In this document: positions 1 through 7,787 of the stretch, piece after piece | Position numbering within the stretch: position 1 is the first letter of the stretch | Layout of the letters: the number at the start of each line of letters is the position of its first letter | Virus record (IMG/VR): IMGVR_UViG_2541047498_000013 | Reading direction: 5' to 3' (one strand) | DNA length: 7,902 nt | From: a virus | Lineage: Duplodnaviria > Heunggongvirae > Uroviricota > Caudoviricetes | Notes under the pieces: generated by a model | Databases searched by the model: none | What the model saw: only the letters and a program-made list of their open reading frames with translations | Told to the model about the DNA's origin: nothing | Program-made: the position numbers and the translations under genes

Positions 1-121
1 CGCCAGATTCGGTTTTAAACGTTTTGCTTTTGGTATACGTCATCGCGGTGAATGTACCGTCCTGGTTGGGAAACACGCCGTACACCAGAGATTCGTTGTT
101 GCCAAGATCGATAGTATCCAT
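1..121 (-). CDS. Small phage protein, 5' end only (first 40 codons in window; gene continues beyond the left edge); possibly YdfA/DUF1391-like
   Basis: Minus-strand ATG at 121..119 preceded by GAGG about 5 nt upstream; open frame to the window edge reading MDTIDLGNNESLVYGVFPNQDGTFTAMTYTKSKTFKTESG. Too short for the supplied ORF track. Family name is from memory of small Qin/Rac prophage proteins and is uncertain. Confidence 0.55.
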   Translation of the reverse strand, partial: MDTIDLGNNESLVYGVFPNQDGTFTAMTYTKSKTFKTESG

Positions 122-313
122 GTTGACCTCATTTCCCCTTAACGCCGGGTAGCGGAACAAAAACCTGCTGCATAGTTATTAAAGTTGAACCCTGCCGTCA
201 TGTTCATACGCCTCGGGCTGGCTACTTACCCCCTGACCACTGCTTGGTAACTCGAAGTATTGCCCGGCGTTCTGTGGGGCGGGGTGGGTGGTTGGTGTAT
301 GTAATCTACAATA

Positions 314-341
314 AAAAACTGTTTTTGTGTCAACAGTTTTT
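314..341. promoter_or_regulatory. Palindromic operator-like site (left operator candidate): AAAAACTGTT-N8-AACAGTTTTT
   Basis: Perfect 10-bp inverted repeat read directly. The 16-mer ACAATAAAAAACTGTT at 308..323 is repeated exactly at 1343..1358. A TTGACA hexamer (minus strand, 333..328) lies inside the palindrome. Confidence 0.6.
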
Positions 342-354
342 AATTGTTGTTTTG

Positions 355-381
355 GGCAAAAAAATCCCTCGAAAGAGGGAG
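355..381 (-). terminator. Candidate Rho-independent terminator downstream of the ParE-like gene (minus strand)
   Basis: On the minus strand: stem TCCCTC / GAGGGA (365..370 pairs with 375..380), 4-nt loop, then a run of 7-8 T (plus-strand A run 357..364), starting 18 nt after the toxin stop codon. The stem is short (6 bp), so strength is uncertain. Confidence 0.5.
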
Positions 382-398
382 TATGAAAATTGTTCAAC

Positions 399-686
399 TC
401 AGATAGAGAAGGGAAATTGTCGCCGAGAATGTGTCACGCTTACAATCTCAATGCTTGAAGCAGCTACTCTGTACAGGATTATGTAGTTAGGGTGGGTCAC
501 GATCTCTCTCAATCCAGAAACCCGTTCGCTTGGTGGATATAAGTACGGATGCTCAGATAGAGGTAATACCGATGTTTCAATGCGTATTTTTAGTCTACGT
601 GCTGCCGGTGGGTTCTCCTTGGCGATGTAAGTTATGATCTGGCGCAAATCATCGCGAGCAGACGGTAGCCATAAAATGGGTAACAT
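399..686 (-). CDS. parE: Type II toxin, RelE/ParE superfamily (ParE2-like, gyrase-poisoning family)
   Basis: 95-aa ORF beginning MLPILWLPSARDDL and containing LPLSEHPYLYPPSERVSGLREIVTHPNYIILYRV, which I recognise as ParE-family motifs. Its ATG overlaps the upstream antitoxin stop by 1 nt (TAATG), the typical toxin-antitoxin coupling. Confidence 0.8.
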   Translation of the reverse strand: MLPILWLPSARDDLRQIITYIAKENPPAARRLKIRIETSVLPLSEHPYLYPPSERVSGLREIVTHPNYIILYRVAASSIEIVSVTHSRRQFPFSI

Positions 687-877
687 TACTCGCTCTTGTT
701 AGTTACAGCAATTTGAGCAATAAGATTTTCCATTTCAGCCATTACCTCGTCATGTGGAATTGCGGGGCGAGTGTCTGCAAGGCTTGACGTTACTTTAGTG
801 CGCAACCATTCGTTGTAACTGTTTTCTTGTTCGGTAGTTTCGAATTCTGAAACTATCGGAGAAAGGGCTGTACCCAT
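686..877 (-). CDS. paaA2: Type II antitoxin, PaaA2-like (small antitoxin partner of ParE2-type toxins)
   Basis: 63-aa ORF with SPIVSEFETTEQENSYNEWLRTKVTSSLADTRPAIPHDEV, recalled as closely resembling the 63-aa PaaA2 antitoxin. AGAGGAG Shine-Dalgarno 7 nt upstream of the ATG; sits immediately upstream of and overlapping the toxin. Confidence 0.75.
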   Translation of the reverse strand: MGTALSPIVSEFETTEQENSYNEWLRTKVTSSLADTRPAIPHDEVMAEMENLIAQIAVTNKSE

Positions 878-904
878 GGCATAACTCCTCTTCTTGTACT
901 GTGG

Positions 905-1306
905 TCACGCCCGGCGGCTTTTTTGTGCCGCCAGCCACCTAGCAATGGTTTCTTCCATTGATTTTTTCTTGTCTTTGATTTCTTGAAGCATTTTTTCTTG
1001 GTCTTCCTCAGGAAACGCACTAAAAGCTTGGAGCAGTTCGCGTTGGCGAGGACCAATTTTCATCGTGTCAGGGGTGAAAATTTGCTCACACTCTTCAGGA
1101 GGCAATAAAAACCAATGCAATGGATGCCCTGAAACCTCAACCAGTTTATCCAAACTTGAGGCTTTAGGTGTAGCCTTACCGCTGACCCATTGTTGAACAG
1201 TTTGTTGTGTCACACCAATTCTACGGGCAAGCTCAGCCTGGCTCCATCCAGTTTCCTGAAGAAGCTTGCTGATTCTGTACATAGATACTTCTAGGGCGCT
1301 CATCAT
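905..1306 (-). CDS. paaR2: XRE-family HTH transcriptional regulator, CI-like prophage repressor / PaaR2-like regulator of the toxin-antitoxin operon; no LexA-type peptidase domain seen
   Basis: 133-aa ORF with HTH motif WSQAELARRIGVTQQTVQQWVSGK; no GDSM-type S24 protease motif in the C-terminal half. First gene of a leftward three-gene cluster, divergent from the Cro-like gene. Start uncertain: ATG at 1306 has no Shine-Dalgarno (possibly leaderless); in-frame ATG at 1282 would give MYRISKLL. Confidence 0.75.
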   Translation of the reverse strand: MMSALEVSMYRISKLLQETGWSQAELARRIGVTQQTVQQWVSGKATPKASSLDKLVEVSGHPLHWFLLPPEECEQIFTPDTMKIGPRQRELLQAFSAFPEEDQEKMLQEIKDKKKSMEETIARWLAAQKSRRA

Positions 1307-1347
1307 TATTCAATTTTACAGGTAAATACTGTTAAAAGCATCACAAT

Positions 1348-1376
1348 AAAAAACTGTTGATTGCATACAGTTTTTT
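1348..1376. promoter_or_regulatory. Palindromic operator-like site (right operator candidate) in the divergent regulator / Cro-like intergenic region: AAAAAACTGT-N9-ACAGTTTTTT
   Basis: Perfect 10-bp inverted repeat sharing an exact 16-mer with the 308..341 site. Lies in the 108-bp gap between divergent regulator genes, where a lambdoid right operator would sit; a TTGATT -35-like hexamer is at 1358..1363. Confidence 0.6.
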
Positions 1377-1414
1377 ATTGTAGGCTTTGCTTATAGTTTT
1401 TAGAGGAGGGCAAA

Positions 1415-1687
1415 ATGCTAGATAGCACTCGCGAAAAAATTAGGCAGAAATACACTCAGGCTGAAATAGGTCGTTATATGGGGGTCGCTCAACAGACTGT
1501 TTGGCAATGGTTTAGCTTTGGCGTTCCCCCAAAGCAGGTAATTCCGTTATGCCAACTAATGAAGTGGGAAGTTACCCCGCATGAAATCCGCCCAGATATT
1601 TATCCTAACCCAACCGACGGTTTACCTGTTGGATGTAAGGTTAACACATCAAATGCGCCGGAGTTGATTCATGAAAATCAAGCATGA
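1415..1687 (+). CDS. ydaS: Cro-like HTH regulator (YdaS-family)
   Basis: 90-aa ORF with AGAGGAGGG Shine-Dalgarno 4-5 nt upstream; HTH segment QAEIGRYMGVAQQTVWQWF; divergent from the CI-like gene and overlapping the YdaT-like gene by 17 nt. Symbol by analogy to the Rac prophage locus, not by verified identity. Confidence 0.7.
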   Translation: MLDSTREKIRQKYTQAEIGRYMGVAQQTVWQWFSFGVPPKQVIPLCQLMKWEVTPHEIRPDIYPNPTDGLPVGCKVNTSNAPELIHENQA

Positions 1688-2096
1688 ACACATCCGCATG
1701 GCGATGAATGCCTGGGCGCATCCGGACGGCGAAAAAGTACCGGCTGCGAAAATTACCAAAGCGTATTTCGAGCTGGGAATGACGTTCCCGGAACTGTATG
1801 ACGACAGCCATCCGGAAGCCATGGCTCGCAATACTCAGAAAATTTTCCGCTGGGTGGAGAAAGACACTCCTGATGCGGTTAAAAAAATTCAGGCGTTGTT
1901 ACCAGCGATCGAAAAAGCGATGCCGCCTCCGCTGGTGGCCCGAATGCGCAGCCACAGTTCCGCTTATTTTCGGGAGTTGGTAGAGACGAAGGAACGGCTG
2001 GTGAAAGATATTGATGATTTCGTTGCATCAGCGATCGTTCTGTTCGATCAGATGAATCGTGGTGGCCCGGCAGGAAACACTCTGGCTGTGCATTAA
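1671..2096 (+). CDS. ydaT: YdaT-family protein (CII-like regulator; historically annotated as a putative toxin)
   Basis: 141-aa ORF beginning MKIKHEHIRMAMNAWAHPDGEKVPAAKITKAYFELGMTFPELYDDSHPEA, which I recognise as near-identical in pattern to Rac prophage YdaT. Position directly downstream of the Cro-like gene matches. Confidence 0.8.
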   Translation: MKIKHEHIRMAMNAWAHPDGEKVPAAKITKAYFELGMTFPELYDDSHPEAMARNTQKIFRWVEKDTPDAVKKIQALLPAIEKAMPPPLVARMRSHSSAYFRELVETKERLVKDIDDFVASAIVLFDQMNRGGPAGNTLAVH

Positions 2097-2109
2097 TTGG
2101 GTAATAAAT

Positions 2110-2836: not shown

Positions 2837-3928
2837 ATGCGTGATTACGCAAAAGTTTCTCCGCGATTCTGGCTGGGAGAAACGGGGAGAGAACTTAGAA
2901 AGGCGGGTGCAGAAGCGCAAGTTGTTGCTTTTTACCTGATGACATCCCCTCACGCAAATATGCTGGGTTTGTATTACCTGCCAGTTTTATACCTTGCTCA
3001 TGAAACCGGGCTTGGTCTGGAAGGGGCTTCAAAGGGGCTTAAAAGGGCTGTTGAAGCTGGTTTTTGTAGCTATGACCATGATGCAGAGATGGTCTGGGTC
3101 CATGAAATGGCAGCCTGGCAGGTTGGGGAAACGTTGAAGCCTGGCGATAACCGTTGTGCAGGTGTCAGGAATGAGTATGCATCATTACCTGAAAACGCTT
3201 TTCTGTCAGTGTTTTACGACAGATATAAAACGGATTTCCATCTGGATGTGAGGCGGAATAATAGCCGAAATTCGGTAAGGGGCTTCGAAGGGGCTTTTAA
3301 GGGGCTTCGAAGCCAAGAACAGGAACAGGAGCAGGAGAAAGAACAGGAACAGGACAAAAACACTATGGTTCATGGCAAAAAAAACACCACGAACCAGGCA
3401 GGGGATGTTCAGACCGTCAATCCTGGTCAGCCAGCAGGCACGACACCGGAAGCCGATTCGGGCGCTGTGCAGCAGGTGATGACCGCAGGGTCGGAGCAAT
3501 CACACCAACTGCAGCAGCCTGAAGCCGATTCCGCCATTCAGCGGGAAGCCGATCGGGTAGTCCCGGAAAGCACCGGGCAGTCTGTGGGACGAGTGGATTA
3601 TCCGGATGTGTTCGAACAGGTCTGGCGGGAATACCCGTTGCGTGCTGGGGCAAACCCGAAGAAATCCGCTTTCAGTGCCTGGAAGGCCAGATTGCGCGAG
3701 GGGGTGCCACCAGAGACCATGCTGGATGGTGTGAGGCGTTACGCGAGATACCTGGCGGCGACCGGGAAAGCGGGAACGGAATTTGTTCAGCGAGCGACGA
3801 CGTTTTTTGGGCCGGACCGGAATTTTGAAAACCCCTGGTTGCTCCCGGTAAGCGGCACGAACAACCAGCGTTGTGTGAATCATATTTCTGAACCGGATAC
3901 CGAAATTCCGCCGGGATTCAGGGGGTGA
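2837..3928 (+). CDS. Phage replication initiation protein (lambda O-like / Rac YdaU-like role), with internal repeats and a QEQEQE low-complexity linker
   Basis: Long ORF immediately upstream of the DnaC-like loader gene. Start taken at ATG 2837 (MRDYAKVSPRFWLGETGREL) with GAGG 5 nt upstream; the ORF is open from ATG 2726 but that codon has no Shine-Dalgarno. Internal AAGGGGCTT repeats and A-rich tract are consistent with an origin embedded in an initiator gene. Confidence 0.65.
   Translation: MRDYAKVSPRFWLGETGRELRKAGAEAQVVAFYLMTSPHANMLGLYYLPVLYLAHETGLGLEGASKGLKRAVEAGFCSYDHDAEMVWVHEMAAWQVGETLKPGDNRCAGVRNEYASLPENAFLSVFYDRYKTDFHLDVRRNNSRNSVRGFEGAFKGLRSQEQEQEQEKEQEQDKNTMVHGKKNTTNQAGDVQTVNPGQPAGTTPEADSGAVQQVMTAGSEQSHQLQQPEADSAIQREADRVVPESTGQSVGRVDYPDVFEQVWREYPLRAGANPKKSAFSAWKARLREGVPPETMLDGVRRYARYLAATGKAGTEFVQRATTFFGPDRNFENPWLLPVSGTNNQRCVNHISEPDTEIPPGFRG
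3021..3049. repeat. Iteron-like direct repeats, cluster 1: AAGGGGCTT x2 plus AAGGGCT at 11-bp phasing
   Basis: Copies start at 3021, 3032 and 3043 (read directly); they encode the GLEGASKGLKRA segment of the initiator. Confidence 0.5.
3277..3308. repeat. Iteron-like direct repeats, cluster 2: AAGGGGCTT x3 at exact 11-bp phasing
   Basis: Copies at 3277..3286, 3288..3296 and 3299..3308, immediately followed by a GAACAG-type hexanucleotide repeat and an A-rich tract. Confidence 0.55.
3316..3355. repeat. Imperfect hexanucleotide tandem repeat (GAACAG/GAGCAG units) encoding QEQEQEQEKEQEQ
   Basis: AGAACAGGAACAGGAGCAGGAGAAAGAACAGGAACAGGAC read directly; followed by an A-rich stretch to about 3390. 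Confidence 0.6.
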
Positions 3929-7035: not shown

Positions 7036-7227
7036 ATGAACGGACAAATATCAATTGTTCGACCAGGAGCATGTGACGATCGCGAAATACGAATGATTAT
7101 TCGTCTGGCGATGGGGAAAACAATAACTGCTCTCATTACTCCAGAAAATCTCGCATTAGCATTAACAGGAAAGTCAGACATGCCAGTAGAGCTAAAGCTG
7201 CGAAATGTTGAGATTAAGGTGAAATAG
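7036..7227 (+). CDS. Hypothetical small phage protein (63 aa)
   Basis: ATG with AAGGAG Shine-Dalgarno 6 nt upstream, 1 nt after the upstream stop. Confidence 0.6.
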   Translation: MNGQISIVRPGACDDREIRMIIRLAMGKTITALITPENLALALTGKSDMPVELKLRNVEIKVK

Positions 7228-7229
7228 CT

Positions 7230-7787
7230 ATGACCACTATTACCAAAGATCGACTGCTGACAATCCAGCATTGGCGCGAAACATACGGACCGGGTAGCAA
7301 CGTTGTGCTTCCAGCAGAAGAAGCGGAAGAGCTGGCACGGATTGCGCTGGCATCACTGGCAGCAGTATCGGATGAACGAGCAGCCTATGAATTATTTATG
7401 GAGAAGCGTTTCGGAGAATCTGTAGATCGCCGCAGAGCAAAAAATGGCGATAGAGATTACATGGTATGGGATATGGCGCTTGGCTGGATTATCTGGTGTC
7501 ACCGCGCCGCCATGCTTCAGGCTGGAAACTTTCGGGAAAATAAGGGTTCGTCAACCAATAATTTTCGGGAAATCTCGGAAACGTCAACCAACTATCCGGC
7601 AATCCCTGATGAGGTGTTGTCCGCAATCCTGAAGGTCGCCAGGCTTCGTGCAGATTTCGATGCTTCTGAAGTGGACAGGCGAGGTATCGGTAGTTGTCTG
7701 GATGAGGCCGAGCAAGAACTTATCGTTACCATTAACGAATACGCCAGTCAGATCGCAGTAGAAGCGACACAGGGGGAGAACCAATGA
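7230..7787 (+). CDS. Hypothetical phage protein (185 aa)
   Basis: ATG 2 nt after the upstream stop with AAGGTG 7-8 nt upstream; long ORF co-oriented with the cassette. No family recognised. Confidence 0.6.
   Translation: MTTITKDRLLTIQHWRETYGPGSNVVLPAEEAEELARIALASLAAVSDERAAYELFMEKRFGESVDRRRAKNGDRDYMVWDMALGWIIWCHRAAMLQAGNFRENKGSSTNNFREISETSTNYPAIPDEVLSAILKVARLRADFDASEVDRRGIGSCLDEAEQELIVTINEYASQIAVEATQGENQ

Follow-up and report, generated by a model that had tools for sequence, protein, structure and literature searches.

The 7,902-nucleotide (nt) stretch of caudoviral DNA analyzed here (IMG/VR record IMGVR_UViG_2541047498_000013; from now on referred to as the window, whose coordinates are used throughout) carries two near-identical palindromic sites, site 1 and site 2, on either side of a leftward operon encoding a regulator, an antitoxin and a toxin. 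We interpret these sites as the left operator and promoter (OL/PL) and the right operator with its divergent promoters (OR/PR-PRM) of a cryptic lambdoid prophage of Escherichia coli O157:H7, whose immunity cassette would extend from about 292 to 1659. Each palindrome would consist of two putative operators, 15-base-pair (bp) pseudo-symmetric units of the form ACA[A/G][G/T]-N5-[A/C][C/T]TGT, with a -35 hexamer between them. We assign this reading as a whole a probability of about 85%.

At the core of both sites lies the 16-mer ACAATAAAAAACTGTT, present in exact copies on the plus strand at 308-323 and 1343-1358, as correctly located in a preliminary description of this DNA. Copies with one mismatch occupy the minus strand at 332-347 and 1366-1381. 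At three or fewer mismatches, the 16-mer has 4 matches against 0.10 expected, a number reached in none of 200 shuffles. A repeat search returned inverted arms at 303-323/332-352 for site 1 (21 nt, 86%, 8 nt apart) and at 1343-1357/1367-1381 for site 2 (15 nt, 100%, 9 nt apart), and the two sites are also connected by a perfect 17-nt cross-match (306-322 versus 1367-1383). The gap between the ACTGT and ACAGT arms differs by 1 bp, being 10 at site 1 and 9 at site 2. The preliminary description had proposed one palindromic operator per site. Both sites are real, but each resolves into a pair of 15-bp units, and a third unit next to site 2, OR3, had been missed.

Read outward on the minus strand, site 1 runs ACAATTAAAAACTGT (347-333), TTGACA (333-328), ACAGTTTTTTATTGT (322-308) and TAGATT (308-303). 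Read outward on the plus strand, site 2 runs ACAATAAAAAACTGT (1343-1357), TTGATT (1357-1362), ACAGTTTTTTATTGT (1367-1381) and TAGGCT (1381-1386). The common outward-pointing design of both sites can be written as operator / TTGAnn / operator / TAnnnT. Units are spaced 24-25 bp center to center, and OL and OR are about 1035 bp apart. The palindromes reach 39-40 bp because the two asymmetric units of a pair sit as mirror images around the -35 hexamer, a placement to which a symmetric dimer of dimers would be suited. No third OL unit was found on either side of site 1, where the flanks differ among relatives. The pattern ACA-N9-TGT occurs seven times in the window versus 1.97 expected. Five of the seven matches fall within the two site regions, leaving two outside the operators, which is the number that chance predicts. 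At 7044-7058, ACAAATATCAATTGT fits this pattern at the start of a 63-amino-acid (aa) open reading frame (ORF). It has A at position 5, a base found there in none of 20 operator units.

Much of the function proposed here is transferred from a characterized system, prophage CP-933P (Jurenas et al. 2021, PMC8630535; Prolic-Kalinsek et al. 2023, PMC9986795), in which PaaR2 is the analogue of CI, YdaS that of Cro and YdaT that of CII (PMC8630535). Electrophoretic mobility shift assays (EMSA), DNase I footprinting and gfp fusions established that PaaR2 and YdaS act at OR and at PL/OL. Both leave footprints in the intergenic region and act as repressors of PR and PRM; at low levels, PaaR2 activates PRM about 4-fold. 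PL lies with OL1-3 immediately past parE2, and each of the two proteins represses it about 100-fold (PMC8630535). The PaaR2 mRNA was found to be leaderless by 5' RACE and N-terminal sequencing, and the octameric state of PaaR2 in solution led the authors to propose looping (PMC8630535). The window resembles CP-933P in gene order and orientation, in the location of OL/PL just beyond the toxin gene and adjoining the same conserved leader, and in an identical YdaT site, OM. The conserved flank next to site 1 is also the one that adjoins the cloned PL933P fragment. The two systems differ in the DNA-binding end of the repressor and in the Cro-like protein, both unrelated in sequence, in the operator repeats (consensus GTTTAGTAA in CP-933P versus ACARK-N5-MYTGT here), in the length of the intergenic region (97 bp versus 108 bp) and in the number of OL units (three reported versus two found). 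As the operators of CP-933P differ in sequence, the window represents a heteroimmune paralogue.

Several features that define PaaR-PaaA-ParE modules are found in the window, namely a PaaA2 antitoxin gene followed by a ParE2-like toxin gene, a separate PaaR2-related regulator encoded first in the operon and a divergent ydaS-ydaT pair with a YdaT site at its junction. The lambdoid arrangement is likewise recognizable. Three units (1318-1332, 1343-1357 and 1367-1381) lie in the 108-bp divergent intergenic region and, judging from hexamer positions, overlap promoters. A second cluster (308-322 and 333-347) flanks a TTGACA beyond the repressor operon, at the position equivalent to PL933P, and the operator type changes at both sites together with the DNA-binding domain of the repressor.

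Relatives of the regulator were collected from fifty viral-contig loci and one Arsenophonus contig. Regulators 68-100% identical and carrying the recognition helix TQQTVQQW define a set of 45 loci. All 45 have ACA-N9-TGT units at -75, -51 and -26 from the repressor ATG as well as a pair beyond the operon, and the unit at -26, OR3, keeps its position in all of them, including L045 with its differing interior. The offset to the distal pair tracks the cargo carried between repressor gene and OL, amounting to about 960 nt if the toxin-antitoxin (TA) pair is present, to 608 nt in L041 and L042, in which it is deleted, and to 1268 nt in L045-L047, which carry other ORFs. The earlier proposal that operators are found on both sides of the immunity genes is thus supported by homology to CP-933P and by positions kept in 45 loci. 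Generally, the units are more uniform than their surroundings. A comparison of 17 distinct OR sequences showed variation in 1 of 45 operator columns and in 15 of 35 other columns (Fisher 5.6e-6, although these are close relatives and kinship overstates their independence). Variable OR columns are concentrated in the gap between OR1 and OR2, TTGA excepted. All 20 distinct units are 15 bp long and read ACA[A/G]-N7-[C/T]TGT with an A/T-rich center. Only A or G is found at position 4 and only C or T at position 12, neither restriction being set by the search pattern. A scan of one genome per species returned a single distant relative only, in Arsenophonus, with two upstream units (-82 and -33) and a pair (+465 and +488) in comparable positions.

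The cargo slot between the repressor gene and OL corresponds to the position of rexAB in lambda. It contains the ParE/PaaA pair in the window, remnants in L041 and L042 (3400-3650) and a 134-aa ORF together with an opposite-strand 81-aa ORF in L045-L047 (3400-4300).

The proposal of a leftward promoter with an embedded TTGACA, suggested in the preliminary description to be repressible, is supported. The hexamer (minus strand, 333-328) is backed by homology to PL933P and by its conserved position in relatives, TTGAC being found in 44 of the 45 loci, as TTGACA in 41 and as TTGACG in L045-L047. The predicted PL start near 296 coincides with the beginning of the leader common to heteroimmune prophages. 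For the candidate PR -35 hexamer, TTGA is retained in 44 of 45 relatives, one OR variant having TTTA, and the rest of the 9-nt gap is variable. The hexamer at the PR -10 position reads TAGCCT, TAGTCT or TAATCT in divergent relatives. TATAGT (1392-1397) was considered as a PR -10 element and rejected, as it is not conserved and would leave about 10 nt of leader. The repressor ATG is not preceded by a Shine-Dalgarno sequence, so that the repressor mRNA is predicted to be leaderless, and the PRM geometry matches that of CP-933P (GATAAT, 6 nt, ATG). No good -35 hexamer adjoins OR2 for PRM, which fits an activator-dependent promoter. A terminator-like stem-loop would end the regulator-antitoxin-toxin operon just before OL2. 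All features discussed are collected in Table 1.

Table 1. Predicted operators, candidate promoter elements and genes of the immunity region
Feature	Position	Strand	Description
ydfA-like (DUF1391) gene start	1..121	-	Pfam DUF1391 E 1.5e-22; first gene of PL operon
PL -10 candidate	303..308	-	TAGATT; spacer 19 nt, 18 nt in most relatives
OL1 (putative)	308..322		ACAATAAAAAACTGT; in PL spacer; outer T (308) starts -10; unit present here in 45 relatives
PL -35	328..333	-	TTGACA; between OL2 and OL1; function predicted from PL933P
OL2 (putative)	333..347		ACAATTAAAAACTGT on minus strand; just upstream of PL -35, one-base overlap
Terminator-like element	365..380	-	intrinsic terminator-like stem-loop and T run; between toxin gene and OL2
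ParE-family toxin, 95 aa	399..686	-	Pfam ParE_toxin E 2.9e-17; 5cw7_B (ParE2 structure) E 3e-36
PaaA-family antitoxin, 63 aa	686..877	-	Pfam PaaA2 PF21217 E 5.6e-19
Repressor, 133 aa	905..1306	-	N-terminal helix-turn-helix (Pfam HTH_3), PaaR2/DicA-like C-terminal domain
PRM -10 candidate	1313..1318	-	TAAAAT; 6 nt before ATG at 1306; last T of OR3 starts it
OR3 (putative)	1318..1332		ACAGGTAAATACTGT; weaker; ACAG at both ends; in PRM spacer
OR2 (putative)	1343..1357		ACAATAAAAAACTGT; adjoins weak PRM -35 region; one-base overlap with PR -35
PR -35 candidate	1357..1362	+	TTGATT; between OR2 and OR1
OR1 (putative)	1367..1381		ACAGTTTTTTATTGT; in PR spacer; last T starts -10
PR -10 candidate	1381..1386	+	TAGGCT; 18-nt spacer
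Cro-like regulator (YdaS family), 90 aa	1415..1687	+	Pfam YdaS_toxin E 8e-10; helix AQQTVWQW
YdaT primary site OM copy	1664..1681		TTGATTCATGAAAATCAA; exact (TTGATT-N6-AATCAA); ydaS/ydaT junction
YdaT-family (CII-like) regulator, 141 aa	1671..2096	+	Pfam YdaT_toxin

Set against L005, L007 and other loci, the gap between OL2 and OL1 (323-332) measures 10 nt in the window, a length shared by 7 of 45 relatives, and 9 nt in most others. The extra base is one A in a run. It lengthens the PL spacer from 18 to 19 nt and might, in the O157:H7 allele, make PL weaker or alter cooperativity. Downstream of the predicted start, the PL leader (123-296, minus strand) comprises about 175 nt up to the ATG of the ydfA-like gene and is conserved across heteroimmune prophages, window 8-291 (PL leader and first ~115 nt of ydfA) being 95% identical to phage Tritos. 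Its fold (~190 nt) is no better than that of shuffled sequences (z = +0.9), and an Rfam search of 1-2200, leader included, gave no matches at E up to 1.

The repressor can be linked to its putative operators through its recognition helix. The closest solved relative of its helix-turn-helix (HTH) domain is the 434 repressor (E 3e-5), whose TQQSIEQL aligns with the 434-like TQQTVQQW found here. The 434 repressor reads ACAA with Q28, Q29 and Q33, as established by structural work, and these glutamines (Gln-Gln at the helix start and Gln 33) are kept. Operators of 434 are 14 bp long (ACAA-N6-TTGT), with an ACAG half-site in OR3. Like them, the units of the window have ACAA or ACAG half-sites and an A/T-rich center, and as in 434 the recognition helices of the repressor and the Cro-like protein begin alike (QQTV.QW in both; 15 of 28 HTH residues identical, 54%). 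Sequence similarity to 434 is confined to about 55 residues, and the repressor, unlike that of 434, lacks an S24 peptidase domain, no Pfam match to such a self-cleavage domain being found in the 133-aa protein. The repressor is also related to other prophage regulators. Residues 37-133 are 42% identical to PaaR2 (E 2e-20) with residues 1-36 unaligned, DicA is a full-length homologue (28% identity, E 6e-12) and Gifsy repressors are 31% identical. Based on the missing cleavage domain and the likeness to DicA and Gifsy repressors, prophage induction probably proceeds through an antirepressor. A search of the phage collection returned no phage with this repressor, the best match being 54% identical and limited to the HTH.

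Lambda itself, with its cI-rexA-rexB operon, provides the general template. Shared features are operators on either side of a leftward repressor-plus-cargo operon, three OR units spaced 24-25 bp, ends of OR1 and OR2 that overlap the -10 and -35 of PR, an OR2 that adjoins a weak PRM -35, a leaderless repressor mRNA (predicted here) and a cargo slot between repressor gene and OL. Differences concern unit length (17 bp in lambda versus 15 bp here), the number of OL units (three versus two), the OL-OR distance (2.4 kb versus ~1.0 kb), the repressor, which is short here and without a RecA-cleavable domain, and the cargo (rexAB versus a ParE/PaaA TA pair). A further parallel is found in the Qin prophage of E. 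coli K-12, where DicA represses dicBp upstream of ydfA via operators that are also present between dicA and dicC (PMC10448788). The dicA-dicC-dicBp region shares with the window the ydfA 5' end and ~100 nt upstream (95% DNA identity over 152 nt; window 8-158 is 95% identical to Qin), a dicBp built as operator, TTGACC, operator, TAATCT, and a short repressor that is probably antirepressor-controlled. It differs in its operators, which are of the TGTTAG...CTAACA type, in its Cro-type protein DicC and in the absence of TA cargo between dicA and dicBp.

L055, L048 and CP-933P, relatives that differ in their DNA-binding domain or helix, each carry a motif of their own at both positions. L055 combines a different HTH domain with the same C-terminal domain and TA DNA that is 78% identical, and its motif is TAAATAGCA.. 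/ CA.TGCTATTA. In L048, the helix is AQQSVQKW and the motif ACTTTTAAAGT. Four heteroimmune prophages are near-identical to the window up to ~291 and divergent beyond. This point, 16 bp away from site 1, corresponds to the predicted start of PL. In phage Tritos, matches are restricted to 8-291 and 1660-2094. The junctions fall outside both sites, which places both inside the immunity-specific cassette. With one site so close to the left mosaic junction, the shared 16-17-mers could be seen as recombination or module-boundary sequences, or as remains of a duplication, without any regulatory role. We consider this highly unlikely. The right junctions lie at ~1660 (Tritos) and ~1035/1597 (L055), neither at site 2, and variation is kept out of the units but tolerated in the gap that separates them. 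As the repeats are part of the exchanged module and differ between immunity types, they cannot supply the homology for an exchange.

It should be noted that mosaic junctions can be seen at ~292, ~1035, ~1597 and ~1660 in the window. E. coli 2013C-4991 (L055) shares 8-1035 and 1597-2094, so that toxin, antitoxin and C-terminal domain of the repressor are kept, and differs in the DNA-binding domain, the OR units and a locally replaced OL patch.

The covariation of motif and repressor also bears on two other explanations. LexA (SOS) boxes end in CTGT and ACAG, spaced as CTGT-N8-ACAG. The inner CTGT...ACAG of the palindromes has these conserved ends, and a repressor without a self-cleavage domain needs another route of induction, so that LexA or another host factor might bind here and couple the prophage straight to the SOS response. 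However, CTGT-N8-ACAG matches neither site at one or fewer mismatches, the spacings being N10 and N9, and replacement of the whole motif at both sites in heteroimmune relatives is unexpected for a host-factor site, which makes this explanation extremely improbable. The probability that the palindromes act as RNA or DNA hairpins, i.e. as terminators, processing sites or cruciforms, is equally minimal. Both would fold if transcribed (-12 to -20 kcal/mol, z-scores -3.2 to -6.2), but such folding is common to all palindromes, the stems consist almost entirely of A-U pairs and there is no Rfam match. Both sites are located upstream of the predicted transcription starts, site 1 beyond the operon terminator, L043-L045 do not retain the inverted relation at OL, and covariation with the DNA-binding domain of a repressor would be unexpected for an RNA role.

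Several points weigh against the operator assignment or limit its support. Functions are transferred from CP-933P, lambda, 434 and Qin. With one extra central base pair compared with 434, the unit is 15 bp and not 14 bp long, and the docking geometry of the 434 repressor cannot apply unchanged. The related loci are mostly close relatives whose column counts do not represent independent events, and the anchor used to place the 45 loci contained CCTGTAAAAT, so that the TGT end of OR3 and the PRM -10 TAAAAT were imposed and do not count as independent evidence. A strict sigma-70 consensus scan of 1-1800 missed all three proposed promoters and returned a single unrelated site, PR matches 7 of 12 consensus positions and the PL spacer of the window is 19 nt. 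The promoter calls consequently rest on conservation and on analogy with CP-933P, and remain inferences. In addition, the OR1/OR2 pair of L045 preserves 13 of 15 mirror positions, with two compensatory changes, and the pair as a whole may matter beyond its single units.

This last point supports a reading in which each 39-40-bp palindrome is a single long operator for one symmetric tetramer or octamer, with the 15-mers as mere arms. Mirror symmetry between OR1 and OR2 is 15/15 in the window and 13-15/15 in every type, and the octamer reported for PaaR2 would suit such an arrangement. We nevertheless regard a single long operator as unlikely. OR3 is a lone unit at the same pitch whose position is kept in 45 loci, the gaps are 8, 9 or 10 nt long and vary freely in sequence while the unit is always 15 nt, and at OL mirror symmetry is lost in L043 (9/15 inverted versus 12/15 direct) and weak in L044, L045 and L002. 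By analogy with 434, each 15-mer also has its half-sites pointing inward rather than across the large dyad.

With paired 15-bp operators, we hypothesize a switch in which every unit would be occupied by one dimer of the PaaR-like repressor of 133 aa. The Cro-like YdaS-family protein, owing to its nearly identical recognition helix, would read the same units with the opposite outcome. On OL1 and OL2, the repressor would block PL (TTGACA...TAGATT) and with it the ydfA-ydfB-dicF-dicB division-inhibitor operon. On OR1 and OR2, it would block PR (TTGATT...TAGGCT), the promoter of the Cro-like and CII-like genes. Repressor bound to OR2 would further stimulate the weak leaderless PRM from which repressor, antitoxin and toxin are made, and OR3 would close PRM at high repressor. 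Repressor oligomers may bridge OL and OR, looping being suggested by the reported PaaR2 octamer and by the relation of residues 37-133 to PaaR2. Binding, cooperativity and OL-OR looping are thus all proposed by analogy with CP-933P and lambda. In a speculative and rather improbable extension, a pre-formed PaaR-type octamer would clamp OL1-OL2 and OR1-OR2 into a loop of ~1 kb enclosing its own gene and ParE/PaaA, loss or rearrangement of the cassette would free both ParE and the DicB/DicF block, the resulting double addiction would lock the prophage in O157:H7, and the 1-bp longer OL gap (PL spacer of 19 versus 18 nt) would tune the system.

The PL operon continues beyond the window with ydfB, dicF and dicB according to the annotation of L001, a 100%-identical O157:H7 genome. 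The gene for the small RNA DicF (L001 4668-4719, minus strand; Rfam 76.9 bits), outside the window, is found between ydfB and dicB. With DicF and dicB as part of this operon, site 1 would gate two cell-division inhibitors.

Window 8-2100 is 100% identical to E. coli O157:H7 chromosomes. In strain TR01, the genes left of site 1 are integrase, exonuclease, dicB, ydfB and the DUF1391 (ydfA-like) gene, those between the sites encode a ParE-family toxin, a RelB-annotated antitoxin and an HTH protein, and site 2 is followed by a "transcriptional regulator", a YdaT-family protein, an ECs1072-family protein and replication genes. O157:H7 strains contain two toxin-antitoxin-regulator loci of this type. 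Strain PV15-279 has only two such loci, that of the window and a second one identified as the published CP-933P by its PaaR2 beginning with MQKKE and its intergenic region of 97 bp. A homologue of the CP-933P locus has been located in CP-933M (PMC8630535). The window is therefore probably the CP-933M copy, a paralogue of the CP-933P paaR2-paaA2-parE2 / ydaS-ydaT region. The CP-933M assignment, as well as the name paaR1, is based on one sentence of PMC8630535 and on elimination within one genome. The TA-plus-repressor segment is found at at least 99% identity in about 440 of 5426 complete E. coli genomes.

The switch described here seems to be a two-sided repressor/Cro-like switch of the ordinary kind, and its classical lambdoid layout implies no new principle. 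What seems new is the operator sequence of this immunity type, which appears not to have been written down previously. We found no paper in the literature that maps the operators of this copy. The result is a predicted map of the operators in the second PaaR-type immunity region of O157:H7, comprising five units of 15 bp and three promoters. The switch is predicted to hold down the dicF/dicB division-inhibitor operon and to set expression of the ParE toxin. Such a map makes EMSA, footprinting and reporter work straightforward. One oligomerization domain combined with different DNA-binding domains and operators also represents a natural series well suited to a specificity-swap study.

The remaining proteins of the cassette and its right flank are related to those of CP-933P to varying degrees. 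The toxin is 67% identical to ParE2, the antitoxin 70% identical to PaaA2 and the YdaT-like protein 86% identical to YdaT, whereas the Cro-like protein has no BLASTP match to YdaS. Footprinting in CP-933P defined the OM site (PMC9986795). Its exact copy in the window (1664-1681) extends over both the Cro-like gene's end and the start codon (ATG) of the YdaT-like gene, and its presence suggests that the repressor operon can probably also be reached here by a route of the PRE type.

Further downstream, a 363-aa gene occupies the position of the O replication initiator. It contains direct and inverted repeats GGGGCTT(C/T)(A/G)AAGGGGCTT at 3016-3057 and 3272-3324 that look like origin iterons. Two tandem 33-nt repeats AAyTTTCGGGAAA....GTCAACCAA, 75% identical to each other, are found at 7527-7591 within a 185-aa ORF (7230-7787).

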